The position numbers and the translations under genes were made by a program. A DNA stretch of 64,000 bases. Origin: an uncultured Alistipes sp. (GTDB taxonomy: Bacteria; Bacteroidota; Bacteroidia; Bacteroidales; Rikenellaceae). The stretch spans positions 711,446 to 775,445 of the forward strand of contig CALURC010000016.1 in assembly GCA_944323075.1 (NCBI GenBank), read 5' to 3'. Of this stretch, positions 8,744 through 27,052 are shown piece by piece (the first letter of the stretch is position 1; each line of letters starts with the position of its first letter). The notes beneath the pieces were generated by a model. That model was not told where the DNA came from. It did no database searches and saw only the letters and a list, made by a program, of their open reading frames with translations.

Positions 8744-9823
8744 TTATAATGTTCGTAAATAATCATATAATTTATCCATAATATAATCTGTATCATATTT
8801 TAAAGATGATTTCCTTGCATTACCCGAAATAATATTTTTTTCACTATCTGTAAGATTATAATAACAATCTATCCTATCAATCAGACTAGAGATATCCCCT
8901 GTACTAAAAAAAAGACCATTTTTCCTATCCTCAATATAATCGGTAGGTCCATGAGAATCACTTGCTATAACAGGAATACCACAGGCCATTGCTTCAAGTC
9001 CGACCAGACCTAAAGATTCCTCTTTCCGAGTAGAAGGAAATATAAAACAATCCATCTGAGAAAATATAGAAGGAAGTTTATCATGTGGAATAGGTCCTAT
9101 ATAATCAACAATATTACTAAGATCCAATTGAGAAATCAGCTCTAACATCTCCTTGGTTTCTCCCCCTCTTCCTGCAATAATACCTCTAATATTTCCATAT
9201 CTTTGTCTCATATTATTTACTGCATTAAGAAATAAATCCCATCCTTTACCTTTATCTATTCTTGACACAAAACCCAGAACAAACATCTCTCGATCTTTTC
9301 GATTATTTAAAGGAGAAAACAAAGTTGTATTAACTCCTCCAGATGGAGAAACAAATATTTTTCCCGCAGGATAATCTGGCAAGAACTTAATTATTTCTTT
9401 TTTAAAATAATTTGAAGGAGAAACTATGGATATAGCCTGATTCAATATAGGTTTTGACAGTTTGCGAAGATACGACGCCTTTCCTCCTCCTAACAAATCT
9501 GCACCGTGTGTATTGAAAACCAATGGAAGTTTTTTAAAAATCGATACAAATTTTATCGGAATAATAGGATAAGTAATAGTATGAACATATATTAAATCAT
9601 ATCGGAAAAACAATAACACAAACAGACTCCTAAAATAAAAAATAAAATATTTATACACTTTCCCTATAACATTTTTACTTCTACCTTTAATAGCGATTAA
9701 TTCTGTTTTCCCTGATCGATTCTTCTTTACAATTGAATCCATAAACTCTTTAACAAAAGTTCCATAAACAGGATCTTTTGTTGAAGGATACATATTAGAG
9801 ATTACAAGTATCTTCATTATCAT
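8744..9823 (-). CDS. Glycosyltransferase family 4
   Basis: EESLGLVGLEAMACGIPVIAS (EX7E), FVSRIDKGKG. Confidence 0.92.
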   Translation of the reverse strand: MIMKILVISNMYPSTKDPVYGTFVKEFMDSIVKKNRSGKTELIAIKGRSKNVIGKVYKYFIFYFRSLFVLLFFRYDLIYVHTITYPIIPIKFVSIFKKLPLVFNTHGADLLGGGKASYLRKLSKPILNQAISIVSPSNYFKKEIIKFLPDYPAGKIFVSPSGGVNTTLFSPLNNRKDREMFVLGFVSRIDKGKGWDLFLNAVNNMRQRYGNIRGIIAGRGGETKEMLELISQLDLSNIVDYIGPIPHDKLPSIFSQMDCFIFPSTRKEESLGLVGLEAMACGIPVIASDSHGPTDYIEDRKNGLFFSTGDISSLIDRIDCYYNLTDSEKNIISGNARKSSLKYDTDYIMDKLYDYLRTL

Positions 9824-9830
9824 CTAAATA

Positions 9831-11000
9831 TTAAATTAATATCGGTAAATTTTTCCCAAAACAAAACTGATAACGAATACAATCTGTATGATTACCAGCA
9901 TCAGCATATATTTGTACGAGAAGATGCATTACAAATAAAAGAACAAACACAGCCCCCACCAAATCACCATTCTTTGTTTTATGTATTTTAAACAAATAGA
10001 AAAGAAAAAAAGAACCAACAATCACTCTAAATATATGAAAATAAGCAGTTACACGACTAAGCACCAAACTACTCATAAATAAAGGTTCAATAACAAAAAA
10101 AATAACATACATAATATATACAAAGCCAAATTTTTTTGACGGAAATACACTGTGTAATTTTTTTGACGAGAATATCAAACAAATATCAACAATAAGCATA
10201 AGGATCCTCCTTACTCCAAAATTCATTTCACGTCCTTCAAGACTATTTAAAGTATTTGCATCAAACCGATCATATCCAATAGCAGCGGAAATAATATCTA
10301 CATACTTTAATAAATATTCCCATATGGACATTTGAGACAAAAATAAGGCTGCAAAAAATAGGGACAATTGAAGCCAACGTGGAATAAAGAATTTTTCTAG
10401 ATTAAAAAAATACAACAAACAGAATGGCAGCAAAAACACAGCACTTGTATGTATAAATGATAATAATAATATCATACATATATACAATAGCACTCTACGT
10501 CTTTCTATTGTTAAAGAAACTACAAATAAGAAAGCTGTACATACCAAAGCTTGTCTCATTCCGTTCATCCAAAAGAAATAATCTCCGCCACACATTATCA
10601 AAACCAACAAATATGGTAAGATATATAATTCTTTACGAAATGAATTTACACAAAAGAATAATTGCATAAAGGCGACAAGTCCAAAATATATCGTAAAATG
10701 AGCACCTAATTCAGCCAAAAAAAGTTGCAAGTACACATACCCAATCTCCATATCCTCCCTATCGAGACTACCATACTTACATATTGATGAATAATCTTCG
10801 AGATAACTTAAATGATCTATACCGACATCCCATCTAACAGCGGAAAAAAAAGTAAACACTATTACCCCAATCCATATACTCCAATTATATAACGGGGTAA
10901 CATTGGCTGTAATTCTATTATTAATTGACAACACTCGTATTTGAAAGGTCTGATATAGTGTGACAATCATAAAACCATACACCAAGATGCTTTGTAACAT
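9831..11000 (-). CDS. EpsG-family O-antigen/capsule polymerase (Wzy)
   Basis: Multi-TM protein with RWDVGIDHLSY, MRQAL, HTSAVF motifs. Confidence 0.85.
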   Translation of the reverse strand: MLQSILVYGFMIVTLYQTFQIRVLSINNRITANVTPLYNWSIWIGVIVFTFFSAVRWDVGIDHLSYLEDYSSICKYGSLDREDMEIGYVYLQLFLAELGAHFTIYFGLVAFMQLFFCVNSFRKELYILPYLLVLIMCGGDYFFWMNGMRQALVCTAFLFVVSLTIERRRVLLYICMILLLSFIHTSAVFLLPFCLLYFFNLEKFFIPRWLQLSLFFAALFLSQMSIWEYLLKYVDIISAAIGYDRFDANTLNSLEGREMNFGVRRILMLIVDICLIFSSKKLHSVFPSKKFGFVYIMYVIFFVIEPLFMSSLVLSRVTAYFHIFRVIVGSFFLFYLFKIHKTKNGDLVGAVFVLLFVMHLLVQIYADAGNHTDCIRYQFCFGKNLPILI

Positions 11001-11004
11001 AGCC

Positions 11005-11973
11005 TCATTTCTTAATCTTATAATACAGAATACGCAACAATCTATAGATTTTATACTTAATATATATCACACTTGGTATTATAAAAAAAATCTCGCTATC
11101 AAAATTAGACATTTTACTCAAAGAATTGATTCTTTTGATTGTCTTTTGAGCGACATATGTAAAACTCTTATCTCGTTCATCACACATTGAATACATCATA
11201 AAAAAACTATCTACGAACAAGTTATACATATATTTAATCACACTATGCCGCACATTGATATTATTAATATTAATATATTCAATTATATTTTGAAATGCTA
11301 ACAAATCATCAATACAATGCTCTAACGAGCGTTTTGTATTCGTAGCTGAATTTTCGTTATATGTATATATATAACAAATATTATTCACTAGTTGTATATT
11401 ACTTTTTGTATGAAGTAGAACCTGTATTATAAATTGACGATCTTCTGAATACTTCAGGTTTTCATTGAAACGGATACTACCGACTAATGATTTCGCAAAA
11501 AAATATGAAACAGAACATGAACTGAAATATTCTTTTGTAAAAAATCGTTCAAGCGGAACTAATTTCGGCTGTTTAAATTCAAAGCAATTATATAGGCTTT
11601 TATCCGAAGTTTCTTTTTTAAACCCAAAATGAATAACCTCTGTACCTTGCTCCACAAAATTTAATGTCGCTAAATATCCATTTTCTATATAATCATCAGA
11701 GTCTACAAATGCAATCCATTCACCCCAAGCATTATCAAGACCAACGTTCCGAGCTGAGCTTACACCTCCATTCTTCTTATGAAATACTCTAATACGGCTA
11801 TCTTTTCTAGCATATCCGTCACAGATTTCTCCACTTTTATCTGGACTTCCATCATCTATCAAAAGAAGTTCAAAATCTTTGAATGTCTGAGCCAAAATGC
11901 TATCTACGCAGCGACATAGATACGCCTCAGCTTTATAAACAGGAACTATTACTGATATTTTTGGATTCAACAT
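11005..11973 (-). CDS. Glycosyltransferase family 2
   Basis: ISVIVPVYK, IDDGSPD, NGGVSSARNVG, FVDSDD. Confidence 0.95.
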   Translation of the reverse strand: MLNPKISVIVPVYKAEAYLCRCVDSILAQTFKDFELLLIDDGSPDKSGEICDGYARKDSRIRVFHKKNGGVSSARNVGLDNAWGEWIAFVDSDDYIENGYLATLNFVEQGTEVIHFGFKKETSDKSLYNCFEFKQPKLVPLERFFTKEYFSSCSVSYFFAKSLVGSIRFNENLKYSEDRQFIIQVLLHTKSNIQLVNNICYIYTYNENSATNTKRSLEHCIDDLLAFQNIIEYININNINVRHSVIKYMYNLFVDSFFMMYSMCDERDKSFTYVAQKTIKRINSLSKMSNFDSEIFFIIPSVIYIKYKIYRLLRILYYKIKK

Positions 11974-13093
11974 AATTATTCAACGCATTACTTAAAAAAT
12001 CATATGCTTTTTCTTTTGCTACTTTTCTACTTAAATTTATTCTTTCATAATCAATAGACGCTGTCACTAAAACATCAAGATCATCTTTGCTATCCGAAAA
12101 AATAAGCCTATTCTCCAGATTAAACATTTTCAATAAAGATGTAAAGCGGCTTAATCCTCTTTTTTGGTTGGCAATAGCAATAAATGGTTTGTTGAATATT
12201 ATCGAAAACACGGTCCCATGAAAAGAGTCTGTTATAATAAAATCAGCATCTTCAAAACCTTTCAACCATTCTGTAACAGATGGGAAAATACACTTTTTTA
12301 GTCCTTTCGATCCGACCTCTCTAAATTTACATTCTGGCATAACAGAGAAAGGCAGCAAATTCAACTTTGACGAAACATATTGCACAATCTGCTGTTTTTC
12401 AAAAGTCGTATCCAGAATATATATCATCAACTTCCCCTTATGTTTTTTTTCGTGCTCCTTACGAACTATCTTTAAATAATCTTCCTTATCAAGAAGCATT
12501 GTCGGATCAAGTAAATGTACAGAATTAACGCCTAAATAATCCTTACATAATATCACTCCAGAATCTTCCCTTACAGAAATTGCATCAAACATTTGAACCA
12601 ATCTAGAACATTCTCGTGTATCTTTCGGGGAGAACTCCCACTCATCTGTGCCAAATGATGCTGCATAAGCTAACCGTTTCACATCTTTTCCTTCCGTGAA
12701 ATCAAGAAAATAGTTCCTCAATCCATACGAATAACGGGGGCGCCACACTTGATCACTTCCTACAATATACGCTTCAAATCCATATTTTTCCAACACAATT
12801 TTTTGTTGTGAAAACACCGGCTCTGTTGTCGTAATATATTTCTTTATAAAAGAATCTGTATATTGTGATATTACTTTTCGTTCTTTTGAGTTTGGATAAT
12901 AAATATGACGTATTGGCCCCAGAACAATCTTTGTAAAATATTTTACATTCTGAAAAAGACTTTTCTTATTCTCTTTACGGTCTTCAGTCCACACCTCGTG
13001 GCCCATTCGTTTCAAAACAGTTTGCAAAGCATAAGCTTGAAGCAAGCCTCCATAATTATGACCTAGAGGTTGGGTCAATATACAAATCCGCAT
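11933..13093 (-). CDS. Polysaccharide pyruvyltransferase-family protein
   Basis: NYGGLLQAYAL, VGSDQVW, YAASFG, ISVRE, DPTML, TDSFHG. The 3' end overlaps the GT2 start by 41 nt. Confidence 0.9.
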   Translation of the reverse strand: MRICILTQPLGHNYGGLLQAYALQTVLKRMGHEVWTEDRKENKKSLFQNVKYFTKIVLGPIRHIYYPNSKERKVISQYTDSFIKKYITTTEPVFSQQKIVLEKYGFEAYIVGSDQVWRPRYSYGLRNYFLDFTEGKDVKRLAYAASFGTDEWEFSPKDTRECSRLVQMFDAISVREDSGVILCKDYLGVNSVHLLDPTMLLDKEDYLKIVRKEHEKKHKGKLMIYILDTTFEKQQIVQYVSSKLNLLPFSVMPECKFREVGSKGLKKCIFPSVTEWLKGFEDADFIITDSFHGTVFSIIFNKPFIAIANQKRGLSRFTSLLKMFNLENRLIFSDSKDDLDVLVTASIDYERINLSRKVAKEKAYDFLSNALNNYVESKNISNSSCL

Positions 13094-13101
13094 AACGATA
13101 C

Positions 13102-14847
13102 TTAATGGCTTTTCAATATCTTTTTGACAATCTTTTTTCCTGTTTCTCCCAATGCAGCTTTTGCCGTCTTCTTGAGTACTGAAACAACAGAATAATTTAT
13201 ATTATTCATTATTTTAATGGCTTCACTCTCATCATTGCTGTCAGTAAATACTTCGAAAATCATCGGACGATCTGTCAATTTCAACTCGACAAACCGATCT
13301 AACCCATGTAAATACTCATCTTTTGTACTCGCGGTCAAATATTCGAATCCCAAATCTTCTGCATAATGTTTAACTAAAGTAGGTGATTGATTTCCAAAAT
13401 GGCCGGCTGCTGCAATAAAACGATCTGCGTCATTCCCAAATGCAGCACCAGGATGCATATAATTCCGAAATTCGGTTCCCCTTCCATTGTTTACTAACAG
13501 AATTCGAACATTTCTTCCCACATGACGATTAGCAAGAACATTCATATCATAAAAGAATGCTAAATCTCCTACCACCCCAAAATAAAGACGATCAGAATGC
13601 GCCAATGATGCTCCAATAAGAGCAGAAACGCATCCATCTATTCCAAAACCTCCTGTATCGGAATAGCCATAAACATCATTCGGTATCTCAAAATAATTCC
13701 AACTTCGTAACGTATTAAGAATTCCTAAATGTAAAACGCTACCATGAGGCAAACGATGTGCGGTTTGAGATGCAATCCAAACATTCGAAAAGGGAAGCGA
13801 ATCGGGTATTTTTGCACGAATAGACAGTAACTCATCATTACACATCTTCCAATATGAATCTCTCGGCTCAGTAGATGGATCAATATAATGTTCAAAAAAA
13901 ACAGATTCTGACATCTCGAACACATAAGTTAGCTTCCGATATGTATCTCTTAACTCGCCATCAAGACTAACACGCCATACTGCATGTGGCCGCATTGAAA
14001 TATACCCTCCGGAAACCTCTCCTATATGAATCAACAGATCTATATCCAACAAGGAAGACATTGCTTTTTCTTGTGAAGACAAAATCGGAACAAGAACTTT
14101 ATATTTACCATTGTAACCACTCGTATGATCACACAAAACCACTGCATCATATGTCGCACAGAAATTATCCAGCAAGGAGGTATCACTCTTTGAAAATTTG
14201 ACGTGTGATCCTATAAAAATCGCAACTCTACCTTGCGGTATTTGAGGAAATTCGTCTTGAAGACACACCCTTTTTATCAACCGAGCTATAGGCAATTCTT
14301 TAACCGAATAATCCCTGCTATACGTCGTAGCCAGATTCAAATGTACAGGCCCCCCTCCCCTATGGCGCAATTCAAGCAGGGCTCGATTAATTTTTACAGT
14401 ATTACTCCATTCATCATTCTCATCTCGCGTCACAGGAACATATTCACTTAATAACGCTATATCATTCTGTATTGAACTACGGTCTATCACTTGAGGAATA
14501 TAATGCCCGACTTTACTTACATCCTGTGTACTAGTCACTGCCAGTACCGGCAATTTGCGATAGAAAGCTTCTGTCAATCCCGAAACATAATTTCGAGACG
14601 CCGTAGCCCCAGTACATGTCAGGACCACAGGCTCTCCGGATTCCGCAGCCAAACCACACGCCAAATATGCAGCACTACGCTCATCGACACTGGAATACAT
14701 TTCGAAAAAACCATCCTGCTGTAAACTTGCTACAAACGACAAATTTGTCGTTCCTGGCGATGCAATTATCTTCTTTATATTATATTGTTTAAGCAATGAG
14801 ATTAGCAATTGCACACTACGCTCATTAGTATAATATTTTCCTTCCAT
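13102..14847 (-). CDS. MenD-like thiamine-diphosphate-dependent enzyme (polysaccharide-locus type)
   Basis: SPGTTN, VDERSAAYLACGLA, TCTGATA, GGPVHLN, GFGIDG, ThDP motif GDLAFFYD...NN. Confidence 0.85.
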   Translation of the reverse strand: MEGKYYTNERSVQLLISLLKQYNIKKIIASPGTTNLSFVASLQQDGFFEMYSSVDERSAAYLACGLAAESGEPVVLTCTGATASRNYVSGLTEAFYRKLPVLAVTSTQDVSKVGHYIPQVIDRSSIQNDIALLSEYVPVTRDENDEWSNTVKINRALLELRHRGGGPVHLNLATTYSRDYSVKELPIARLIKRVCLQDEFPQIPQGRVAIFIGSHVKFSKSDTSLLDNFCATYDAVVLCDHTSGYNGKYKVLVPILSSQEKAMSSLLDIDLLIHIGEVSGGYISMRPHAVWRVSLDGELRDTYRKLTYVFEMSESVFFEHYIDPSTEPRDSYWKMCNDELLSIRAKIPDSLPFSNVWIASQTAHRLPHGSVLHLGILNTLRSWNYFEIPNDVYGYSDTGGFGIDGCVSALIGASLAHSDRLYFGVVGDLAFFYDMNVLANRHVGRNVRILLVNNGRGTEFRNYMHPGAAFGNDADRFIAAAGHFGNQSPTLVKHYAEDLGFEYLTASTKDEYLHGLDRFVELKLTDRPMIFEVFTDSNDESEAIKIMNNINYSVVSVLKKTAKAALGETGKKIVKKILKSH

Positions 14848-14858
14848 ATGTATTTATC

Positions 14859-15740
14859 TCAGAATGAATAATCCATATCTTCATATGTAATAAGCCCTGC
14901 ACCTCCTGTCATATAAACGATATCCCCAACAATAGTTTTCCCCATAGTACTTGTCAAAATCACAGCCATATTCGCAATCTCTTCAGGCAATGCATAACGT
15001 CCTATCGGATTTCCATTGTTCGTTATATTCTCCGTATCATCTCCCAACAACATTGGTGTAGCCGTTGGACCGGGTGCAAGTCCATTTACTGTAATTCCAT
15101 AAGGAGATAATGCCTTTGCCAACCCCAGAGTCAAACCACGTATTCCCCACTTAGACAATGTATAAGCAGAAATAGCCGGACGTAATGCAGAAGATGAAGC
15201 AATATTAAGAATATTTCCTTCAACATGGTTATCTTTCATATATCTTCCGACCAATTGAGATAAGAAGAAAGCTCCTTTTAAATTAGTATTTATAACCTTG
15301 TCAAAATCTTTTTCTTGTGCATTAGAAATATTTGCGCCTAAAATCCCCGCATTATTCACTAGAATATCAATACAATCCCGTTTCGCCGACTTCACTAAAT
15401 TTAGAGCCTGTTCAAAACAATTTTTAAATGAAGAAACAGAAGTGTTATCCATGGCAACACCAAACACCCGATTATCATACACGTGATCTTCATTCAGTCT
15501 ATCACACGTTTGTTGCACTTTTACATTATCTCTACCTGTAATAATAACTGTTGCTCCGCTCCGTAAAAACGCTTGAGCTATACAATACCCTATTCCACTA
15601 GTTCCTCCTGTTATAAATGCCGTACGATCTTTTAAAAGTTCATTTGGCGCAAGATTCACAATCTGTATCTTGAATTTTTTCGCAGGAATACTATTAAGAG
15701 TAAACTTAATCGCGGATTTGATTTTACTTTTAAATGACAT
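14859..15740 (-). CDS. SDR oxidoreductase
   Basis: TGGTSGIG, VNNAG, NIASS, YTLSK, PGPTATPM. Confidence 0.9.
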   Translation of the reverse strand: MSFKSKIKSAIKFTLNSIPAKKFKIQIVNLAPNELLKDRTAFITGGTSGIGYCIAQAFLRSGATVIITGRDNVKVQQTCDRLNEDHVYDNRVFGVAMDNTSVSSFKNCFEQALNLVKSAKRDCIDILVNNAGILGANISNAQEKDFDKVINTNLKGAFFLSQLVGRYMKDNHVEGNILNIASSSALRPAISAYTLSKWGIRGLTLGLAKALSPYGITVNGLAPGPTATPMLLGDDTENITNNGNPIGRYALPEEIANMAVILTSTMGKTIVGDIVYMTGGAGLITYEDMDYSF

Positions 15741-15767
15741 CTTTCAAGAATTTGGACTCCATATTTA

Positions 15768-17300
15768 TCAATTACGAGATATAACAGGTTTCAATACCTT
15801 TTTTAACGGTTCTACAAAAAGATTCCGCTCGTATTCATTCATTGAAAAAAACCATATACATGGCAAATAAACAACACAAAACAGCATTGCGACCATAATA
15901 AAATTTCTCATTCGCGACATATCTATATCAGTCAACGAAAGCAATAATCCACACAAAACACACAACAAAATAGGAGCAATACTCATTTTGCTAATTTCAA
16001 GCCAAAATAGTTTAATATCGATATGCTGTTTTTTCTGATAATATACATTCATAATAACATGCTGCACAATAATAGCAAACGATGTGGCTGCAGCACAACC
16101 GACTCCTCCCCATATCATCGCAGCAGGAATAGACAGAAATAAACTTCCCACCGACACCACCAAATATAATACTGACCGAAATTTCATCTCATTCCGTGCC
16201 ATAAGAATCGTTATACCCATATTTTGAATCAAAGCCACTAACGTAACAACAAAAAACATCAACGAAATTACGTATGTATCTTCATATCCTTCGCCTGCCC
16301 AAAATCGAATAAACTGACGACCAAATAGGATAAATGCACTTAATATGAACGCCATGATAATATATTGAATGCGCCCTATTTTAACAAAAAGATCCGATAT
16401 CTCCTTGTCAGACTTTTGTTTAGTAACCAATGTCGTAACACGAGGTAAGAAAACGCCTGTAATCGCTGATGAAAACGCCATATACATATGTTCCAATTGA
16501 ACAGCTAAAGCATATACTGCCACTGCCGTCGTTCCCACCACAGCACCCAAAACGAACTGTCCCGTACTCCAATATACACGATCCATTATCACATTTAGAA
16601 ATATCCATATCGAATAAACCGTCACTTCTTTTAAAAAATCCCATTTAAAACGTCTAAAACGAAGTTTTACATCAAGTTTCCGATAGCAATAAATACAATT
16701 TATAATAAGCGTCGCAACATTGAATAGCGTCGTAACTACAACCAAAGCTATTACTTTATAACCCATTAATAACAGTACAATCATCACTAATGGATTAAGT
16801 ATTGTCCGAACTATATTGACTAATTTCTGAAATACAAAATTTTCATAAGCTGTAATTATAGACCCCCAAATACTCATGGGGAACGTAAACGCCAAATTAA
16901 AAGCCATTAAAATGAGAATAATTCTCATTTTCAGAACTTCGTCCTCAGTCATTTTCGCTGAAAAAATAGCATCTGTATTGAATGCTAACACCATAGCAAG
17001 TATAAATGCAATTAGACTTATACCCAAATACAACAGAAAGAACATTCCGAACATCTCGTATTGTTCTTCTTTTCGATCTTCGGCCCGAAATTTAGCTGTA
17101 TAACGTATAATTGCATTTCCAAACCCTAAATCAAGTACAGTCAAATAAGCAATTACTGATGCAGCCAACGAATAAAGCCCATATTCAGACTGCCCTAACA
17201 TTCTAAGCAAAAACGGTGTATATAACAGCCCGATCAAAGTATTTAAACCGATCAGTACATACGATAAAACTGTTCCTGCTTTCAATTGATTAATTGCCAT
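15768..17300 (-). CDS. Wzx-type oligosaccharide flippase
   Basis: 510 aa multi-TM protein; LGQSEYGLYSL, LDLGFGNAIIRY. Confidence 0.9.
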   Translation of the reverse strand: MAINQLKAGTVLSYVLIGLNTLIGLLYTPFLLRMLGQSEYGLYSLAASVIAYLTVLDLGFGNAIIRYTAKFRAEDRKEEQYEMFGMFFLLYLGISLIAFILAMVLAFNTDAIFSAKMTEDEVLKMRIILILMAFNLAFTFPMSIWGSIITAYENFVFQKLVNIVRTILNPLVMIVLLLMGYKVIALVVVTTLFNVATLIINCIYCYRKLDVKLRFRRFKWDFLKEVTVYSIWIFLNVIMDRVYWSTGQFVLGAVVGTTAVAVYALAVQLEHMYMAFSSAITGVFLPRVTTLVTKQKSDKEISDLFVKIGRIQYIIMAFILSAFILFGRQFIRFWAGEGYEDTYVISLMFFVVTLVALIQNMGITILMARNEMKFRSVLYLVVSVGSLFLSIPAAMIWGGVGCAAATSFAIIVQHVIMNVYYQKKQHIDIKLFWLEISKMSIAPILLCVLCGLLLSLTDIDMSRMRNFIMVAMLFCVVYLPCIWFFSMNEYERNLFVEPLKKVLKPVISRN

Positions 17301-17367
17301 TATATTTCGAATTTTATATCAGTCGACCGAACATTTCTTCGAAATGCAATTTTTTTTTACAAAAAAC

Positions 17368-18360
17368 TCATCTGAATCCCAAATATTTTACAGAAACCAA
17401 TGGCATCATTTTTTTTACAATTAATATTCCTATAGACGTAATTACAATAACGCAAAGCCACTTAACACCCCATGACAATTCTACAGGTATAACATGTGAT
17501 ATAAAAATGATTACATAACAATGGATTAAATATATTCCGTACGAAATTCCGCCAATTTTTTGAAAAATTTGTAAGCATCTTGATTTTCGTTCATACCAAA
17601 GCTCTAATCGTTTAGAAAACAACAGAACTATGACTGCTGCCGAATATGGTAAAAATGAAATTTTGTTACCGTAACCCACACCATGGAAGCCTATCAAAAA
17701 TTTTGTTTCCAGATATTCCAACAACAATCCTATAATACAAAAGAACACGGGCCATACAAGACTATAATTCCGGTCCTTTTGCCCTAAATACATACCTAAT
17801 ATAAAATAAAAACACAATAATGGGAAAGGACCTGCATATACAGTCAATGGAATTGGATAGTTTTTAATCGCTAAAAGATATGTCGTCAATACGGCCGAAA
17901 CTAAAGAAATGACCAATGAGATTATCAACATATGCGATATATTACGTCTTTTTAAATAAGGTAAAAAAATATATAATTGAATAATTAATATAACAAAATA
18001 ATAAACACTGAAACCACAAAGAAACAATCTCACCACATTCGTAATAAGATTTTGCTCTTGATTAATCAACGCAAATAGAAATAATGGTAACGACCAAATA
18101 AAACAAGGTATATATATTGCAGGTATCTGTTTCTTCCAAAAAACTATTCTATCACTGTTGACATCAAACTGTTTCTGGCCTAAAAAAAAACCAGAGATTG
18201 CAAGAAATAAAGGGACTGCACAATTAATCATTTGACGAATTACAATCTCCATATTTCCACTTATACTGCCGAATGTACTTTGGGGAAAAGTATGTATTCC
18301 AACAACCATAAGCACTGCTACCCCCCTTAAAAAATCAAAATATGTTATCCTTTTTGTCAT
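17368..18360 (-). CDS. Acyltransferase-3 (OafA-like) membrane acyltransferase
   Basis: DFLRGVAVLMVVGIH, AVPLFLAISGF, SYGIYLIH. Confidence 0.88.
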   Translation of the reverse strand: MTKRITYFDFLRGVAVLMVVGIHTFPQSTFGSISGNMEIVIRQMINCAVPLFLAISGFFLGQKQFDVNSDRIVFWKKQIPAIYIPCFIWSLPLFLFALINQEQNLITNVVRLFLCGFSVYYFVILIIQLYIFLPYLKRRNISHMLIISLVISLVSAVLTTYLLAIKNYPIPLTVYAGPFPLLCFYFILGMYLGQKDRNYSLVWPVFFCIIGLLLEYLETKFLIGFHGVGYGNKISFLPYSAAVIVLLFSKRLELWYERKSRCLQIFQKIGGISYGIYLIHCYVIIFISHVIPVELSWGVKWLCVIVITSIGILIVKKMMPLVSVKYLGFR

Positions 18361-18368
18361 TTTTTATT

Positions 18369-19583
18369 TTACTGAACAACGTCTTTATAAATACCGCAAA
18401 AATCCAAAATTACTTTGCTTTCATCCAACGGCAATGTCTTAAAAGGATCATGTGCGACAAGGAAAACTACAATATCAGCTCGACTGTATGCCTCTTGATA
18501 ATCAGTTAATTTAAACACCTGATGTTCTTTAATATTTGGCTCCACGATTAAAATATCCGCATTGTTACAACCTTGCATCACTTTAGACACAATATATTTG
18601 GCAGGGCTTTCCCGCAAATCATCTATATTTGGTTTAAATGCCAATCCCATCATTGCCACTTTCGGTTTACGATGAGTCTTCAACTCAAACTGCAACATCG
18701 CATTCTTCACCTTTTCCACACACCAGAATGATTTGTAATTATTTATTCCTCTTGATGTTGCAATCAATTTTGATTCTGCAGGAAAATCCGCTGTAATAAA
18801 ATATGGATCGACCGCTATACAATGTCCTCCGACACCACATCCCGGTTGCAGTATATTTACACGTGGATGCTTGTTTGCAAGTCGAATAAGTTCCCAGACG
18901 TTTATACCTGCTTTATCACAAATAATAGAAAGTTCATTTGCAAAGGCAATCTGCACATCTCGACTCGAGTTCTCCGTCAATTTGCACATTTCTGCCGTAC
19001 GTGCATTGGTTTTATGTAATGTACCCTGCACAAACTGCGAATAAAATTCAATAGCCTTATCCGTAGACTCAGAGTTTATTCCTCCAATCACGCGATCATT
19101 ATGTACAAGTTCATAAATGACATTTCCCGGCAAGACTCGCTCTGGACAATAAGCAATATAGAGCTTATCTTTCAATTCTGGACGCTCTGCATAAATAATT
19201 TCGGTCATTGCCTCTGTTGTTCCGACCGGAGATGTAGACTCTATAACAAACAGATCTCCGGGCTTCAAATACGGTATTACTGAACGAGTTGCTGCTTCCA
19301 CATATGAAACATCAGGTTCATGATCGCCTTTAAATGGCGTCGGTACTACTATAAAATAAGCATCACTTTCTTCCGGTGTGGTTTTTGCATACAACATTCC
19401 GTTTTGCACAACCTCGCGCAACAGATCTTCCATGCCTGGCTCAATAATATGCAATTCCCCGGCATTTGTTTTTGCAACAACCTGCTCATTTATATCGACT
19501 CCTACAATCTGAATTCCATGTTTGGCGGCAATAATAGATGTGGGTAATCCGATGTACCCCAACCCCATAAAACAAGCTTTCAT
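18369..19583 (-). CDS. wecC: UDP-N-acetyl-D-mannosamine dehydrogenase
   Basis: GLGYIGLP, ESTSPVG, YCPERVLPG, KLTENSSRD, GVGGHCI, FKPNIDDLRESP. Confidence 0.96.
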   Translation of the reverse strand: MKACFMGLGYIGLPTSIIAAKHGIQIVGVDINEQVVAKTNAGELHIIEPGMEDLLREVVQNGMLYAKTTPEESDAYFIVVPTPFKGDHEPDVSYVEAATRSVIPYLKPGDLFVIESTSPVGTTEAMTEIIYAERPELKDKLYIAYCPERVLPGNVIYELVHNDRVIGGINSESTDKAIEFYSQFVQGTLHKTNARTAEMCKLTENSSRDVQIAFANELSIICDKAGINVWELIRLANKHPRVNILQPGCGVGGHCIAVDPYFITADFPAESKLIATSRGINNYKSFWCVEKVKNAMLQFELKTHRKPKVAMMGLAFKPNIDDLRESPAKYIVSKVMQGCNNADILIVEPNIKEHQVFKLTDYQEAYSRADIVVFLVAHDPFKTLPLDESKVILDFCGIYKDVVQ

Positions 19584-19709
19584 ATTTAGTTATTTGATTC
19601 TATTTATAATCTATCATAATATACCAGCTTTCTTCCATCTCTTCTATGTTAGGTATTGTTTTAAGGGACAATATCTAAACTTACTTTTCAACAAGCTGCT
19701 ATTAGACGG

Positions 19710-19817: not shown

Positions 19818-20444
19818 CTAAGAATTATGCTTCATTTTCAATTTGTATCCTTTTCCTGTCTTTTCAAGAACCCCTTGTCGCACCAGTTGAGCGATTGCGC
19901 GAGATAAGGACGGACGTGTGACCCCAAGAATAAATGCGGTCTGCTGAAGATTCTGAATCGAACCGTTATTTTCAAGATAGCCGATCAATCGAGAGGATAA
20001 CGTCTGCAGAGCAAATTGCTCCAGTTTACGGCTCAAAAAGAGGCTATGATCCGAAAGTACCGCCAAAAAATTGTGTAGAATCGCCCGATCCTGTTCAATA
20101 AGCGACAATACACAGGCTTTATTAATAATCCACAATTTACAGTCCGAATGGGCAATCATAGTGATAGGCAAAATATTCTCTGTACCAAAAAGAAATGCAG
20201 AAGCCAAAACATCCGGTGCCGATAGGGTATCGAGCGTGAACTCACGTCCTTCATCACTGATCATCCGAGCATAAACACTTCCTTCACACAAAACATACAG
20301 CGAACGGCAAACGCTGTTCTGCATGGCAATAAACTCCCCCTTACGATAGGAGCTGAAACGACTGGGATACTTTTCGAGTATACCGTCCACTACCGTCTGA
20401 TCACAACCCCGAAAAAGAAGCGTATCATAAATTCTTCTATCCAT
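19818..20444 (-). CDS. Crp/Fnr-family transcriptional regulator, HcpR-like
   Basis: cNMP-binding-like N-domain (LYVLCEGSV) and C-terminal HTH with GVTRPSLSRAI recognition helix. No FNR N-terminal Cys cluster. Confidence 0.88.
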   Translation of the reverse strand: MDRRIYDTLLFRGCDQTVVDGILEKYPSRFSSYRKGEFIAMQNSVCRSLYVLCEGSVYARMISDEGREFTLDTLSAPDVLASAFLFGTENILPITMIAHSDCKLWIINKACVLSLIEQDRAILHNFLAVLSDHSLFLSRKLEQFALQTLSSRLIGYLENNGSIQNLQQTAFILGVTRPSLSRAIAQLVRQGVLEKTGKGYKLKMKHNS

Positions 20445-20477: not shown

Positions 20478-20521
20478 GTAACAAATGTTACACCAAATCG
20501 TATTTCGCCTTTATACTTTTG
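20478..20521 (+). promoter_or_regulatory. Crp/Fnr-type operator plus activator-dependent promoter of the lipoprotein operon
   Basis: Perfect palindrome GTAAC-AAAT-GTTAC (20478-20491) and TACTTTTG -7 box (20514-20521); no TTTG -33 element. Confidence 0.7.
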
Positions 20522-20599
20522 CGCACAAATGAATAATAGACAAATTCCAATATGACTATTGGGAACCGACAAGTACAAATATACAAAACATCGAAACCA

Positions 20600-22459
20600 A
20601 TGAACAGAATTGTGTATGTTTTATCGCTCTGCCTCATTATCTTGAGCTCTTGTCGTTCGGACACATGGATGGAACCCGTTTCTCCGGACAGTGCAAGACA
20701 AGGTATCGCCTTCAAACTGCGATACGAAGAGTTCGAGGAGGCGAGCAACCGATCTGCTTCGCTTCTCGACACAGACTATGATCGTGTAGAGTTCTGCATC
20801 GTCGATGAAAGTGGAGACGTAGTAGACGGAATCAAAGGTCTTTATGATTCGTCCCGTTCCGAGATACGAATCGAAGGACTACGTGAAGGCAATTACCGAC
20901 TTTTGATCTTGGGAATCGTGGGAGACGAAACTGCCGATGGTGTCACAATCACGCCGATACGACACATCGACGAAACTTGGTTACAGTTTCCAGCCGACCT
21001 GCACAAACCGCTCGAAGCAGAATATTTCTACTCACAGACACCTTTTTCGGTTGTCCGGAGCTCCGGTCCCTCTGGAGACGAGCTGACCGCTCAGCTCGAA
21101 GAAGAGGTCGTACAACGCCGGATCATCGGACGCACGGATTTCTCGTTTACATTCAACAATCCGTATGTCGAGAGTGCCCTTTCGACCCGGAATGTCATCC
21201 TGCACGCGCCCCGTTTCCTGACCGATTTTTCCGGATCCGGATCATTTTCGGGAGAAACAGACGGAACGGATGTCTCGATGGATCTCCTCTCGACCTGCTC
21301 TTACCTGTTTCCTCCCACCACCGAAGGAAACCCTTTAGGCGGAGAGATCGAACTGACCACCCGCAACTATCGCGGAGAGACGGTACGCCGTACGTACGAC
21401 TTCACGTTGCGGGAGATCACACCGAACCGTATCGGAAAGATCCACACGACACTCATACATCCGGATGATCCCTCCGGCACGGCGTTCATTACCGAACAGG
21501 TGCTCAAAACGGCCGACTTGAGCTATATCCTGCAAGACGACGAGCCGCACTCCATCTACACGAACTCCTCGTTGCGCTCATTCAACACGTCTGCACCGCT
21601 TCAGGTATCCATCACGGAAGAGGGACAACTTCACGTCCGGTTCTACTCTCCGCGCGATCTGAGCGATGTGCTGATTCAGGCTCTGATTCCTTCGGTAAGC
21701 AGTGAGTATATCGATCTGGCCTATTTTGACCGTATTCCCGCATTTGCCGATTTTTACGGCGAGCTGCGCTCCGTGCAACACAAAACTTTTTTCCGCTCGG
21801 AGTCGGGACGCATCGTCGAGACCGGTCCGATTCTCCTCTCCGAGCTGACAGCTGCAACTTTCCGCATCACCTCGAACGATCCCTTCTGGAGTAAGCTCGA
21901 AGCCATCGAACATGGGTGGAACATAAGTTTCTCTCTTTACGGAGGGAATCCTGAACTTCCGGACGGAGGCCCGGTAGGCAACTGGATGGGAATCCGACCG
22001 GTACACTGTCGGGAAGCCGTAGCCCTGTTCCTGAACTTCACCTACATGATCGACATGCCCGAACATGAAGAGATTCTCCGTACGAACGTTGACCGTCTCT
22101 ACGGCAACGGAGGTCCAACAGACAAAGTTTCCGTCGAGACAGTCCTGCAACAGATGCGACAACGTCGGACTTTACAGGTCGGATTGGTCTATCCGGGTAA
22201 CGGTGTCATTGGACTCGGGGGTGGAAATGTATTCGGAGCCTACCAGCAGGCTTGGTTCCAACACTATTTCAACACCTACTCCTGCGAGATTCTTTTCCAT
22301 GAGTTGGGACACGTCATGGGATACAACCACAGCAGCTCATTCACCTATGGGCCGTGGGCACAGGAGCTGATGAATCGCTTCTATGTCGAACACATCACCG
22401 AAATGCCCATCGATTCGCCATCTTACCTGAAAAGCGAACAGAATCCTAATAAATACTAA
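20600..22459 (+). CDS. Lipoprotein with pilin-like N-terminus and C-terminal metzincin-type zinc metalloprotease motif
   Basis: Start at ATG 20600 gives MNRIVYVLSLCLIILSS-C. HELGHVMGYNH fits HExxHxxGxxH, followed by ...QELM. Confidence 0.75.
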   Translation: MNRIVYVLSLCLIILSSCRSDTWMEPVSPDSARQGIAFKLRYEEFEEASNRSASLLDTDYDRVEFCIVDESGDVVDGIKGLYDSSRSEIRIEGLREGNYRLLILGIVGDETADGVTITPIRHIDETWLQFPADLHKPLEAEYFYSQTPFSVVRSSGPSGDELTAQLEEEVVQRRIIGRTDFSFTFNNPYVESALSTRNVILHAPRFLTDFSGSGSFSGETDGTDVSMDLLSTCSYLFPPTTEGNPLGGEIELTTRNYRGETVRRTYDFTLREITPNRIGKIHTTLIHPDDPSGTAFITEQVLKTADLSYILQDDEPHSIYTNSSLRSFNTSAPLQVSITEEGQLHVRFYSPRDLSDVLIQALIPSVSSEYIDLAYFDRIPAFADFYGELRSVQHKTFFRSESGRIVETGPILLSELTAATFRITSNDPFWSKLEAIEHGWNISFSLYGGNPELPDGGPVGNWMGIRPVHCREAVALFLNFTYMIDMPEHEEILRTNVDRLYGNGGPTDKVSVETVLQQMRQRRTLQVGLVYPGNGVIGLGGGNVFGAYQQAWFQHYFNTYSCEILFHELGHVMGYNHSSSFTYGPWAQELMNRFYVEHITEMPIDSPSYLKSEQNPNKY

Positions 22460-22472: not shown

Positions 22473-24722
22473 ATGAACTATCTGAAATATTTGAATATCG
22501 TATTTTGCGGCATACTTCTCCTGTCGGGATGCCATAAATCTCCGGAGAGCGACCTGCCGACACCCGATGCGGGAACGATCTCTGTCCGCTTTATCCCTGA
22601 AGAACCGGCTACCAAATCCTTCACTCTATCCAAAACAGCACAGGGAGAGACGAATGATCAAGCAATCGGACAGGTCATCGGATACCGTTTTACACAAGGC
22701 TTATTCCGTGAATCGATTATTGGCGAACCGTCCGGAACGGATGGAGTCTACACGTTTCATCCGAGCTCACGTTTGGGAGAGATCTACTTTATTGCAAACG
22801 GACCTTCGGAGATGTCCAGCGAACTGCAACCGGATGTATCCACACAGGATGAATTTCTGGAACTTTACGCCACGGACGAAGAGATGACCGCATCGGGATT
22901 CACGATGACCGGGAAGGCCTCCTTGGACGAGCTCACCTCAACACCAGTGACCATTCGGCTTCGCCGTACGGTTGCCCGCATCGACCTTGTAGTACAAGAG
23001 CGAGGAGTAGCCGTCCACGAGGTAACCATACGGGGCATTGCGGATCGTGGATACCTCAACGAACGTAACAACGTGAGCAATCCGGCGGCATCGGAGAGAA
23101 CGGACTTCCTCAAAGAGTACGCCGACACTCCGTTGACAAACTCCCGGGAAACGCTGTTGTACCTCTGTGAACAGACGGGAGACGTCTTGAGCGTGGAGGT
23201 GATCGCCGACATCGATGGAGGCTTGCACCGGATGACCGCAACTTTCCCCTCGGAGATCCTTCGCAACCGGATATACACCATACAGGTGCATGGGAACGGA
23301 GCCTCCGCCTCTCTCTCCGTTGTCGCCGACAATTGGGAAGAGGGTGATTCAGTAGAGTCTTCTCCCGACCTCAAAGGAGTGATCGACGTCGAAGCTTCGG
23401 TCCTTCCCGAATCGGTTCGGATCAATTCATCCTGCGATTCGGTTTATATCTCTTCCCAAGTAGTAGAATTTCAGTTGGTACTGCGGGCTGAAGCCGAATC
23501 GGATGTAGCGATAGAGGGTACCGTACGGGGCGTAACGACACAGGTTGAGACACTGACCAAGTCCCTGCAACCGGTCGCTGCCGTTTCAGTAGCAAGCGAT
23601 CGACGGCTTCCCGGAGAGAAACAGGCCTACCTCTACCTGAACCTTCACCGCGACGGACTCTACTCCGGACGCATCGTGCTGGTCTTCGAACCGAATCCGG
23701 TTGTCATTACCGGAGCGATCACCTTCGATGAAAACGGCATCTGCGATTTTGGGAAATACGTCGACGGAGAACTGGGCCGGATGAAACTTCCGGAGGGGAA
23801 AACCGCCCGTTTAGAGTTCGACTCGGGAGAGGATGCATGGATGAAACTTGTCGACGATCAGGGCGAACTGCGCATCCTCGGAGGCTGGAAACCCAACGAT
23901 CCGAAAGCCGACGGACGAACCCAAGAGGGACGAATCATCATTGCGGATGCCGACGGATCGAACTCGGAAAGTTACTCTCTCCGTAGGCGTAACTGGGGTC
24001 TTCCGGTGGTCGAGATCGACGGTACATGGTGGTGTAAATACAACCTCCGGGGAAGCGTCAAAAAGTTCGAAGACCAGATTTCGATTCAGGCCGATCCTGC
24101 TTCGGACCGTGAACTGGCCGATTACCTGAACACGTGCGACGAGGACGAATTGCTTCGATTAATGGGAGATCAATATCAGGGAGGTACACAACAGGGACTA
24201 CCGTTAGGGTACGATGGAACCGCTTTTCTGTACGAAGGGATGCGCTCTTCAGGCGGAAACTTCGGCACTCTGGACCCCACCCTCATGGCTCCCGACGGGT
24301 ATCAGATTCCGGACTACAACGACTACGCCTTTTTCAGTGCCAACAACAATTTCAACCTCGGAGGAGTCGGTTCCCGAAGCTATAAGAATGCAGCGGGACA
24401 GGAGATTACCGTACGGATTATCGAACGGGATGTCACTTTCTTGGGACAACATTACGGGAACGTATCGTTTTATGAATTTCAAACCGAAACAGGATACTGG
24501 GTTCTATACGGTCTCGGACACCAGTGGAACACCACACCCGGCAACATTTCGACCAAGATGCTGTTGCTCGCGACCTACGGCAACAGTGCAAACTGCTGGG
24601 TGATGGAGGGCTATGCCCAGAGCGACCGTCCCAACCAAAACTGGTTGAAATTCATGAACCAGAACTCAACCAAAACCCGAACGATCCGCTGCATCAAGAG
24701 TCCGGTAGAGTATATTTATTAA
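22473..24722 (+). CDS. Type V pilin/adhesin-like lipoprotein (FimB/Mfa2-like N-terminus, Fib_succ_major-like C-terminus)
   Basis: LLLSG-C lipobox, PATKS, IYFIAN, LRRTVARIDL, ILRNRIYTI, APDGYQIPDYNDY, RTIRCIK. Confidence 0.65.
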   Translation: MNYLKYLNIVFCGILLLSGCHKSPESDLPTPDAGTISVRFIPEEPATKSFTLSKTAQGETNDQAIGQVIGYRFTQGLFRESIIGEPSGTDGVYTFHPSSRLGEIYFIANGPSEMSSELQPDVSTQDEFLELYATDEEMTASGFTMTGKASLDELTSTPVTIRLRRTVARIDLVVQERGVAVHEVTIRGIADRGYLNERNNVSNPAASERTDFLKEYADTPLTNSRETLLYLCEQTGDVLSVEVIADIDGGLHRMTATFPSEILRNRIYTIQVHGNGASASLSVVADNWEEGDSVESSPDLKGVIDVEASVLPESVRINSSCDSVYISSQVVEFQLVLRAEAESDVAIEGTVRGVTTQVETLTKSLQPVAAVSVASDRRLPGEKQAYLYLNLHRDGLYSGRIVLVFEPNPVVITGAITFDENGICDFGKYVDGELGRMKLPEGKTARLEFDSGEDAWMKLVDDQGELRILGGWKPNDPKADGRTQEGRIIIADADGSNSESYSLRRRNWGLPVVEIDGTWWCKYNLRGSVKKFEDQISIQADPASDRELADYLNTCDEDELLRLMGDQYQGGTQQGLPLGYDGTAFLYEGMRSSGGNFGTLDPTLMAPDGYQIPDYNDYAFFSANNNFNLGGVGSRSYKNAAGQEITVRIIERDVTFLGQHYGNVSFYEFQTETGYWVLYGLGHQWNTTPGNISTKMLLLATYGNSANCWVMEGYAQSDRPNQNWLKFMNQNSTKTRTIRCIKSPVEYIY

Positions 24723-24742
24723 CTAAGTCCGCTTTCTGAACC

Positions 24743-27052
24743 ATGAAAAAGATCAATAAAATGAGTATAAAGATTCGTGCAATAATAACCTGCGGAATAG
24801 TTCTCCTTGCAGGCATGAACTCCTGTTCGAAATCGGAGTCCACTACGGAACCGCCCCACATACCGCCCTCCGATTCAAGCACATTCGTCACCCTTCAGAC
24901 GACCGACTACGAGGTTGCCGGCGAGGAGATCGCCGGGGAGAACGAACTGCAAGAGCTCCGGGCCTACCGGTTCGAGAACGGACATCTGGTCCAAATTCTC
25001 GACCGTCCGACCACCGGCTCCGAGGGCTATGGGTTCCGACTCGATCGCCCGGTCGGCACGCTCTACGTCGTATCGAACACAAACGACATCTCCGCCCTCA
25101 ACAACCTGCAAGGCTCCGGGATTTCCGAGCAGGAGTGGCTTAAACTTACGACCGGCACGAAGGAGGGGCTACCGATCCGATTCTTCTCCGGCAGTACCTC
25201 CCTTTCGGGAAGCTTGTCCAAAGTGGTCAAAATGACCCGCGGATTTGCCCGCTTCGATCTACAGATCCGCACTTCGGGAGAGACAGCAATCGAATCTCTC
25301 ACTTTGGGAAACTGTACGCTCTCAACCCCTCTCTTTGCCGATACTGATTCGGGCTCCACGGCTCCCCAATCGGGTAATCTGACGATCCAGCCCGACAAGC
25401 CGTACACCCAGGACACTCCGGGCTTCGCGTACGTTTACGAACAGACGGACACCGAGGCAACGCTTTTTGCCGAAGCGATCATCGATGGAGAACGGACCCA
25501 CCTCGAAACAAAACTTCCGGAAATCATCCGAAGAAACTGCATATATGTCGTAAGCGTAACGAAAGAGGAGTCCGACGCGGCTGTTCAACTGACTGTCGAA
25601 GCATGGCAGGAGGGCGACCAGATCGGAATGCACCCCTGTTTGGACGGCACCATCACGGTGGATACCGACCGGTCGGAGCTCCCCGAAACCGTTACCGTTA
25701 CCGACAGCGGAACAAAGCTGATTCTACCGCACAACCTTACAGACTTTCTTTTGGCTTTAGATTGCGACGATGAGCTGGAGCTTCTTCCACCCGACAACGA
25801 CGATTTGACCATCGAGCCACTGGGCTCCGTACAGGAGACGTATGCCGTAAATCTGTTTCGGATCCAGAAGCCGCTGTTCGCACCCGGGATGCCCACCCGA
25901 ACGGTTGAGCTCAAATTCCGACGGAAAGGGTTAAACAACGTCTATCCCGAAGACCGAATTTTGGTCACCCTTTCGGCCAATCCTGTCGATCTCGAAGGGG
26001 AAATCTCCTTCGACACGAAGAGCTACTCTTTCGACTTCGATCGCTACGTCGACAATGAGCTGGGACGTTTCACCGTGCCGTCCAACAAAAAACTCACGGT
26101 AGAGTTCGAGGCCGGTGAAGATCCGTGGATCAAACTCGCTCCCAGTGACGAAGACAGTCACACACTCCGCGTACTGGGCGGATGGAAGCCGAACGATCCG
26201 ACAGCCGACGGCCGGATTCAACGGGCCACACTCGTCATCTGCAATGCAACCGACGGTTCTGAACGGGAAGAGTATCAGATCTCTCGACGCAATTACGGTC
26301 TGCCGGTCACATGGTTCCATGGTGTCTGGTGGTGCAAATACAACGCTCGGGGCAACTCCAAAAGTTTCGACGATCAGATTCTCTGCGCCTCCGATCCAGC
26401 AGTTGCTGCGGGTAAAAGCGTTCTCGACTACCTCCGGGACTGCTCGCCCGAGGAGTTCTACGATCTGTGGGGTTGGGCCTACCAAGGCGATAGCGGAATC
26501 GGCCTGCGGGTGGTCGAACAGAACGACACAGTCGTGATGGAGGGCTTCTCATCATCCGTTTCTGCCCACATCAACAAGCTTCCGGCCGACGCCTTGGCTC
26601 CCGACGGATATGAACTTCCCTCGATGGAGGAGTTCAACCGGATGTTCGACGCAACCGACTATGTCTGGATGATGTGGAGTGGCTCTCACCTGCTGCGAAA
26701 CCCGTGGGAAGGGCACAGCAAGGTCATCCGGGAGCAACGTCGCCGCAACGACCTAAGTGTTGGCACAGTACAGACTCCCGACCTGATCTACATCGGCATG
26801 TCGAGTCCCGACTTTCCGGACTTCGAACCGGTCACTTGGTACGGTCCCGGAGCCCAATGGAATGCGGACGGCATAAAACACGCCAACCACTACAACAACA
26901 TCTTGTTTGCAGTACATTCACCGGAAGGCACGGGATGGTACATGGCCGGCAACATGTCTGCTCTCCACCTGCAGAAAAACGGTGCGGGAAATAAAGATAC
27001 CCGTATCCTTCGTTTCAAAAAATCGCCAGTAGAGTATATATATGGAGAATAA
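24743..27052 (+). CDS. Type V pilin/adhesin-like lipoprotein, paralog of 22473..24722
   Basis: AGMNS-C lipobox, LYVVSN, MTRGFARFDL, IRRNCIYVV, APDGYELPSMEEF, RILRFKK. Several blocks shared with the upstream gene. Confidence 0.65.
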   Translation: MKKINKMSIKIRAIITCGIVLLAGMNSCSKSESTTEPPHIPPSDSSTFVTLQTTDYEVAGEEIAGENELQELRAYRFENGHLVQILDRPTTGSEGYGFRLDRPVGTLYVVSNTNDISALNNLQGSGISEQEWLKLTTGTKEGLPIRFFSGSTSLSGSLSKVVKMTRGFARFDLQIRTSGETAIESLTLGNCTLSTPLFADTDSGSTAPQSGNLTIQPDKPYTQDTPGFAYVYEQTDTEATLFAEAIIDGERTHLETKLPEIIRRNCIYVVSVTKEESDAAVQLTVEAWQEGDQIGMHPCLDGTITVDTDRSELPETVTVTDSGTKLILPHNLTDFLLALDCDDELELLPPDNDDLTIEPLGSVQETYAVNLFRIQKPLFAPGMPTRTVELKFRRKGLNNVYPEDRILVTLSANPVDLEGEISFDTKSYSFDFDRYVDNELGRFTVPSNKKLTVEFEAGEDPWIKLAPSDEDSHTLRVLGGWKPNDPTADGRIQRATLVICNATDGSEREEYQISRRNYGLPVTWFHGVWWCKYNARGNSKSFDDQILCASDPAVAAGKSVLDYLRDCSPEEFYDLWGWAYQGDSGIGLRVVEQNDTVVMEGFSSSVSAHINKLPADALAPDGYELPSMEEFNRMFDATDYVWMMWSGSHLLRNPWEGHSKVIREQRRRNDLSVGTVQTPDLIYIGMSSPDFPDFEPVTWYGPGAQWNADGIKHANHYNNILFAVHSPEGTGWYMAGNMSALHLQKNGAGNKDTRILRFKKSPVEYIYGE

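Follow-up and report, generated by a model that had tools for sequence, protein, structure and literature searches.

A type V pilin body joined to a zinc-peptidase module: a conserved architecture in gut Bacteroidales

Introduction

What could a bacterium do with a lipoprotein that resembles a pilin in its first half and a peptidase in its second? The question is raised by a gene at 20600..22459 (+ strand, stop codon included) in a 64,000-nucleotide (nt) stretch of DNA from an uncultured Alistipes sp. (referred to here as the window, whose coordinates are used throughout). A preliminary description of this gene, made from the letters of the sequence, had proposed that it encodes a pilin-like lipoprotein fused to a metzincin-type protease domain, and had considered a surface-displayed or pilus-tip protease, or an enzyme that matures neighboring pilins, as its possible roles. 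Here we report that the product does join a type V pilin body to a zinc-peptidase module, that this fusion is conserved, and that the module comes from a family about which hardly anything has been described. Both parts of the proposed architecture were borne out: the fold of the N-terminal half matches solved type V pilins, and the C-terminal half is homologous to 9tpb, a structure deposited as a "metzincin". The parts are known; our literature search found no paper on the 9tpb-type family or on a protease-bearing pilin, and no description of a protease head on a type V pilin.

Gene and product

The only long open reading frame (ORF) spanning 20600-22459 runs from 20552 to 22459 (+). Because alignments of orthologues begin at the ATG at 20600, and not at the upstream ATG at 20552, we take the product to be 619 amino acids (aa) long, with the N-terminus MNRIVYVLSLCLIILSSC. 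A word-indexed search returned 453 homologues and an exhaustive search returned 296 cluster representatives; no homologue in either search carries a functional name, and the genes of the operon are "hypothetical" or unnamed across every source examined. When we compared the gene with two 96%-identical orthologues, the ratio of nonsynonymous to synonymous substitution rates (dN/dS) was 0.11-0.12 for the whole gene, 0.18-0.27 for the N-terminal half, and 0.04-0.08 for the C-terminal module. Given this breadth of homologues and the low dN/dS, the sequence features of the gene are not due to chance, and the gene is under purifying selection. Residue conservation was read from two alignments, one of 58 diverse homologues (identity down to 21%) and one of 82 close orthologues. 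All features of the protein described below lie on the + strand.

A type V pilin body in the N-terminal half

We built an AlphaFold2 (AF2) model of the full-length protein on the 58-sequence alignment. The model reached a predicted local distance difference test (pLDDT) score of 92.5 and a predicted template modeling (pTM) score of 0.78, with disorder confined to the linker that follows the lipobox (residues 18-32). When this model was compared with the PDB using Foldseek, type V pilins occupied 19 of the 20 top rows (the exception stood at rank 14), with probabilities of 0.99-1.00 and moderate template modeling (TM) scores of 0.31-0.48 on the target. The best match was the DUF1812/Mfa2-like protein 3gf8 (E value [E] 4.1e-7); the Mfa2 anchor 5nfi (E 5.2e-7), the polymerized FimA pilus 6kmf (E 1.3e-4), and about 15 further "cell adhesion" pilins from the Joint Center for Structural Genomics (JCSG) were also recovered, and the E values of all pilins fell between 4e-7 and 4e-4. 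The Pfam Mfa2 model did not match the 619-aa lipoprotein. By its modeled fold, the N-terminal half is a type V pilin body, with two beta-sandwich domains at residues 36-297 (20705..21490), a reading supported by the Foldseek matches and by hhalign comparison. The segment EGLREGNYRLLILG (residues 92-105; 20873-20914), which had earlier been singled out as pilin-like, is a conserved strand that lies within the N-terminal beta-sandwich of the model; among the 58 homologues, G97 is invariant and L94 and Y99 are nearly so.

The subunits of type V pili follow recognizable rules. In each, a lipidated Cys is followed by an anchor strand (beta1), and a protease site lies in the beta1-beta2 loop; C-terminal donor strands are present on base, stalk, and adaptor subunits and missing from tip subunits, and the anchor subunit lacks a cleavage site (PMC13655056). 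The window protein begins with a lipoprotein signal peptide (20600..20653) that ends in the previously noted lipobox, LSSC. Its cysteine, Cys18, is invariant in 58/58 homologues, and lipidation is predicted from the sequence. The first beta-strand assigned by DSSP on the AF2 model, at residues 36-43 (20705..20728), takes the position of the type V anchor strand, and its residues F38 and L40 are conserved among homologues. The loop after this strand contains ASNRS (residues 48-52; 20741..20755), which the preliminary description had marked as a basic-Ser site at the place where type V pilins are cut. This reading agrees with the alignments: R51, a candidate site of propeptide cleavage, falls in the beta1-beta2 loop of the model; a basic residue (R or K) stands at this position in 53/58 of the diverse homologues and 68/82 of the close orthologues (83-91% of relatives), preceded by T or S and followed by S or A. 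A preprint reports cleavage of the Bacteroides tip pilin BfrT at R43, also an Arg site (bioRxiv 10.1101/2024.11.15.621889).

The pilin body is directly continued by 320 residues that fold as the protease module. Since the body runs straight into these residues, it has no free C-terminal donor strand, and by the rule for type V subunits (PMC13655056) only a tip-type role would then be possible. As far as its sequence goes, the lipoprotein formally has the grammar of a tip pilin, namely, the Cys, the anchor strand, the Arg site, and the absence of a free donor strand, and it looks like a client of the Arg-specific activity that processes Bacteroides tip pilins.

A zinc-peptidase module in the C-terminal half

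No Pfam or NCBIfam model scored above its cut-off on the whole protein or on either half; the sub-threshold Pfam matches, to Peptidase_M10 and Reprolysin (E 0.03-0.3), were at the zinc motif only. A phmmer search of PDB sequences found one entry pair, 9tpb/9tpc (9tpb_A, E 3e-12, residues 317-583), deposited under the terms "Metallopeptidase" and "metzincin". The 9tpb chain (356 aa) shares 99% identity with a hypothetical protein, 365 aa long, from Capnocytophaga canimorsus. A profile built from the module matched 9tpb at an E value of 1.5e-60 (profile positions 69-358 on chain residues 54-354), followed by "HomA" (9tpy, 9tp2) at E 1.3e-16 over ~330 residues; serralysins, reprolysins, and matrix metalloproteinases (MMPs) ranked after HomA and matched at the level of the motif only. 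On the strength of this homology, we assign the C-terminal half (residues ~305-619; 21512..22456) to the family of zinc metallopeptidase modules represented by 9tpb.

Modeled alone with AF2, the module had a pLDDT of 96.5 and a pTM of 0.94. The model comprises a beta-sandwich (residues ~330-445; 21587-21934) and a catalytic subdomain (residues ~460-619; 21977-22456), the latter with a helix at 467-484, strands at 524-547, and helices at 559-572 and 585-597. This order of elements is compatible with a metzincin fold, although the model gave no significant Foldseek match to a peptidase. The per-domain Foldseek check that the preliminary description had called for was in this way informative for the pilin half and returned nothing significant for the module. 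ZmpA, BT_4244, and OgpA were returned as weak matches to the module at E values of 0.03-0.14 and probabilities of at most 0.15, and we did not use them.

The zinc-binding consensus HELGHVMGYNH lies at residues 567-577 (22298..22330) and ends 42 residues short of the C-terminus; the earlier sighting of an exact HExxHxxGxxH near the end of the protein was correct. H567, E568, H571, G574, and H577 are present in 82/82 orthologues, and the H/E/H/H of the motif is kept in 58/58 diverse homologues. Across the other architectures in which the module occurs, the third zinc ligand is nearly invariant (90% or more). In the AF2 model, H567 and H571 are one turn apart in helix 559-572, which stops just before G574. 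A conserved acidic segment, DDEP (residues 313-316), could come close to the zinc and serve as a latency switch.

The motif had also been described as being followed by a Met. Methionines are indeed found downstream, at M591 and M602, but the position of the family's Met-turn is occupied by Phe581. In 9tpb, HomA, and distant family members, a Met stands four residues after the third His in a Met-turn-like S/G-N-M-T-Y sequence; 9tpb reads GNMTY where the window protein reads SSFTY. The orthologue alignment and covariation identify F581 (22340-22342) and M591 (22370-22372) as a coupled pair (22340..22372). M591, in the helix after F581, is kept in 81/82 orthologues, and across diverse alignments F581 is paired with M591 in 23/25 cases, whereas M581 in distant members pairs with A, S, T, C, or G at position 591. 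The methionine may therefore have been relocated within one lineage, with M591 as a substitute, although this covariation possibly reflects one inherited event and is not proof of contact.

Several comparisons place the module among known proteins. Its likeness to 9tpb/9tpc extends over its whole length (residues ~317-619): both have the beta-sandwich and a catalytic domain with HExxHxxGxxH, as well as a loop reading GLGGG, and both occur in lipoproteins; 9tpb differs in being a stand-alone lipoprotein of ~360 aa with no pilin body, and the stand-alone family representatives closest to the window module share 23-35% identity with it. HomA (487-aa chains) has an intact HEFSHTKGYTH and NMTY but is far more distant, contains large insertions, and is not a pilin-fused lipoprotein. 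HomA of Helicobacter pylori is an outer membrane protein; if 9tpy/9tp2 do represent such an H. pylori Hom protein, the family of the module would include its surface domain. The comparison with fragilysin (BFT) and MPII made in the preliminary description stands for the zinc motif and for nothing beyond it. These enzymes, like matrixins, serralysins, and reprolysins, recall the window protein through an HExxHxxGxxH carried by a secreted protein or lipoprotein of Bacteroidales, but the match to BFT-3 (E 0.06) covers the zinc motif only, that to Peptidase_M10 (E 0.03-0.07) is below cut-off, and that to a serralysin (E 1.4e-4) spans ~50 residues. Furthermore, the window protein has no prodomain of the kind found in these metzincins, and its overall module is a different one.

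Pilin fusion is one of several architectures of the module, which is also found as a stand-alone lipoprotein of ~360 aa, N-terminally in proteins of ~700 aa, and C-terminally in proteins of ~800 aa. In the ~700-aa lipoproteins P0189, P0194, and P0214, the N-terminal module is followed by a repeat-rich region of ~330 residues, and in P0196 and P0265 (about 810-870 aa) the module is C-terminal, behind unrelated N-terminal domains.

Operon partners, distribution, and surroundings

The protease gene opens an operon. Partner 1 (22473..24722, +), which starts after a gap of 13 nt, encodes a pilin-fold lipoprotein of 749 aa whose C-terminal head is globular, and partner 2 (24743..27052, +), 20 nt further on, encodes its 769-aa paralogue (30% identity, E 8e-89). 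We found no + strand terminator-like site between the operon genes. The N-terminal 300 residues of the partners are pilin-like, with weak matches to FimD_tip_adhes and Mfa2. BLASTP of the protease N-terminal half against the partners found nothing, and their kinship is detected by profile-profile comparison alone (hhalign against the partner N-domain, probability 89%, E 2.3e-6, 248 columns). The C-terminal 260 residues of the two partners (within 22473-27052) have in common the invariant blocks RRNxGLPV, WWCKYN, APDGY, and KSPVEYIY. The conserved basic site is present on the protease protein; it is absent from partner 2 and from the loop of partner 1.

We next turn to the occurrence of this operon elsewhere. 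A scan that took one genome from each species turned up 273 related stretches, and the loci described here are the best 80 of the 273. These loci belong to Alistipes and other Rikenellaceae, Phocaeicola, Mediterranea, Barnesiella, Bacteroides, Cryptobacteroides, Odoribacter, Parabacteroides, and Prevotella-labeled genomes, many of them metagenome-assembled genomes (MAGs) from chicken gut; the closest are those of Candidatus Alistipes pullicola and A. merdigallinarum (96%). Cultivable carriers include Phocaeicola plebeius DSM 17135, Mediterranea massiliensis, and Bacteroides ilei. Nearly all of the 80 loci with enough sequence have the order protease, partner 1, an optional pilin of ~300 aa, and partner 2, while the outer flanks vary. 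The module itself is sparse: 8 of 301 evenly sampled Bacteroidales genomes have it, as do 3 of 17 species that belong to the same genus as the window.

The optional ~300-aa pilin-only gene lies between the partner genes in about half of the related loci (at 12220-13119 of locus L003, for example, and at the corresponding place in about half of L005-L084) and is absent in the window. It is homologous solely to the pilin-like N-terminal 300 residues of the partners (hhalign E 1e-59 to 3e-89), and 72% of its copies have K or R at position 44. We regard it as a candidate adaptor or stalk subunit. The operon of the present genome contains no stalk or anchor pilin gene; recognizable Mfa/FimA-type pilin genes are located at several other loci of the genome.

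Two Mfa_like_1 (PF13149) genes sit at the left edge of the window, one at 406-1053 (+) and the other just upstream of the window (G000:C16:710082-710765), with E values of 7e-23 and 6e-19. Between these genes and the protease operon lies a polysaccharide-biosynthesis island (window positions ~1900-19600) with a G+C content of 30-39%, compared with 43-53% elsewhere in the window. This island stops just before the regulator gene described below.

A divergent regulator and its candidate operator

A gene for a Crp/Fnr-family regulator (19818..20444, - strand; cNMP_binding, E 9.9e-13; HTH_Crp_2, E 1.2e-5) is divergently oriented upstream of the protease gene. A Crp/Fnr gene is found upstream in about half of the 80 related loci, the window's locus included. 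Between the regulator and protease genes lies a perfect palindrome, GTAACAAATGTTAC (20478-20491, +), a candidate operator of the form GTAAC-N4-GTTAC. A Bacteroidetes -7 box, TACTTTTG (20514-20521, +), follows 22 nt after it, which places the palindrome at about -42 from the inferred start. In an alignment of three loci, the palindrome and the -7 box are kept in L002 and L003, whose proteins are 70% and 58% identical to the one studied here. The 2.5-Mb genome has one further copy of the palindrome, within an ORF of 1186 aa, so that the copy upstream of the protease gene is the sole intergenic one. For this reason we set aside a global regulator of the HcpR type and take the regulator to be local. 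On these sequence features, it looks dedicated to the protease operon.

Discussion

The results presented above led us to consider how a peptidase module on a pilin body might be used. We think it probable that the lipoprotein is an active zinc protease, displayed at the cell surface on its pilin scaffold. After export by Sec and lipidation at Cys18, it would be placed on the external face of the outer membrane, where the pilin body could act as a stalk that keeps the protease head clear of the cell. There it could stay lipid-tethered; alternatively, cleavage at R51 may allow it to take up a donor strand, supplied by a stalk or adaptor pilin from another locus or, in other genomes, by the ~300-aa pilin of the operon. 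Within the head, H567, H571, and H577 would be the zinc ligands and E568 the general base, and F581 together with M591 could form a hydrophobic floor in place of the Met-turn methionine of the relatives. It is predicted to be co-transcribed with two pilin-fold lipoproteins whose heads appear distantly Fib_succ_major-like, and the protease probably acts jointly with these partners on an extracellular, possibly glycosylated, target. The Crp/Fnr-type regulator probably switches the operon on through the class-II-positioned GTAAC-N4-GTTAC operator.

A more specific form of this proposal is a protease-tipped type V pilus, in which the R51-cleaved lipoprotein would sit at the distal end of a fiber. 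The donor pilin would be the optional ~300-aa pilin in other genomes or, here, a pilin from another locus, and the protease would be placed beside, or alternate with, the two partners with their lectin-like heads. We compared the protein with known tip and accessory pilins, namely, Mfa4/Mfa5 and FimC-E of Porphyromonas gingivalis and BfrT/BthT/BunT and BovFim1C of Bacteroides. It shares with them the lipoprotein nature, the anchor strand, the beta1-beta2 Arg, the double beta-sandwich, the lack of a free donor strand, and the presence of an additional head at the C-terminus. However, the known heads are adhesive (C-type-lectin-like or von Willebrand factor A [vWA]), whereas this one is protease-type, and known tip genes close operons that also encode stalk and anchor pilins, whereas the window gene opens an operon with neither. 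The Mfa2/DUF1812 anchors (5nfi, 3gf8) are the best structural matches to the N-terminal half (TM about 0.47-0.48 on the target), yet anchor pilins have donor strands and no cleavage site, while the window protein has a conserved Arg and, by the published rule (PMC13655056), no free donor strand. We regard a location at the tip of a fiber as a tentative possibility.

Certain observations weigh against a surface-displayed, active protease and give substance to other explanations. The residues from the lipobox Cys, CRSDTWME, make a weak acidic lipoprotein export signal, and two pilin-like proteins of Bacteroides, BovT and BfiT, are reported from the periplasm (bioRxiv 10.1101/2024.11.15.621889). 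The protein could accordingly be a periplasm-facing outer-membrane lipoprotein with a protease role in envelope protein quality control or processing. We consider this unlikely, as D or E occupies the +3 position after Cys18 in 43/58 homologues, the tip-pilin grammar is complete and includes the conserved Arg site, and the operon partners resemble tip adhesins. The lectin-like nature of the partner heads is itself weak, since they match Fib_succ_major at a best E of 0.0022 (7/16 members) and a profile search of the PDB found no relative for them. Another point against the main proposal is that none of the subunits encoded by the operon in the present genome shows an evident donor strand. The catalytic side of the proposal is challenged by the Phe at the family's Met-turn position in 82/82 orthologues and by the lack of a significant Foldseek neighbor for the C-terminal module in the PDB (to April 2026, in a library without 9tpb) and in BFVD, which leaves the label "metzincin" resting on the name given by the depositors of 9tpb and on sequence. 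The head might instead be a pseudo-protease, metzincin-like but without catalysis, that is retained for binding, with the pilin body as its stalk. Consistent with such an adhesin, the Met-to-Phe change extends to the whole orthologue clade, no known peptidase is a significant fold neighbor, and the module is common to a protein deposited as HomA; H. pylori HomA is not known to have a peptidase role. Pseudo-enzymes, however, normally lose residues of the catalytic motif, and here the zinc motif is intact in every orthologue and diverse homologue aligned. The protease module is also under the strongest constraint within the gene, the paired change at F581 and M591 looks like compensation and not decay, and 9tpb was deposited as a metallopeptidase. 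Loss of catalysis consequently strikes us as quite improbable.

The preliminary description had further raised the possibility that the enzyme matures its neighboring pilins. Under this explanation, the head would cut the beta1-beta2 loops of the partners, or of type V pilins generally, and replace the Arg-gingipain that most Bacteroidales lack. It has in its favor that the gene shares an operon with pilin-fold lipoproteins and that, in the portion of the preprint we could consult, Arg-site cleavage in Bacteroides has no assigned protease (bioRxiv 10.1101/2024.11.15.621889). The distribution of the module speaks against it, since the module occurs in just 8/301 Bacteroidales genomes and 3/17 congeneric species. 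Recognizable type V pilin genes, moreover, lie at several other loci of the present genome. In addition, metzincins usually select on P1' rather than on a P1 Arg. The protease itself carries the conserved basic residue in its loop and the partners do not (partner 1 lacks it in the loop, partner 2 altogether), which fits a substrate of maturation better than the enzyme. Taken together, its rarity, the pilin loci elsewhere, and the location of the site make a maturation role very unlikely, and a surface-displayed protease remains our preferred explanation.

Type V pili are the main fibers by which Bacteroidales of the gut and mouth adhere, and the tips known so far are limited to binding. A constrained zinc-protease head on a pilin body would add an enzymatic function to this scaffold. 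If the protein does serve as a tip, it would be the first enzymatic tip in type V pili, and the cell would possess a reach-out-and-cut organelle under a dedicated Crp/Fnr-type sensor. Because the operon has its own regulator and operator, these ideas are directly testable in cultivable commensals. The 9tpb-type family spans Capnocytophaga to a protein named HomA, and this protease family, with only unpublished structures to date, would gain a context and a testable role from an unannotated operon that is conserved across many genera of the chicken and human gut.

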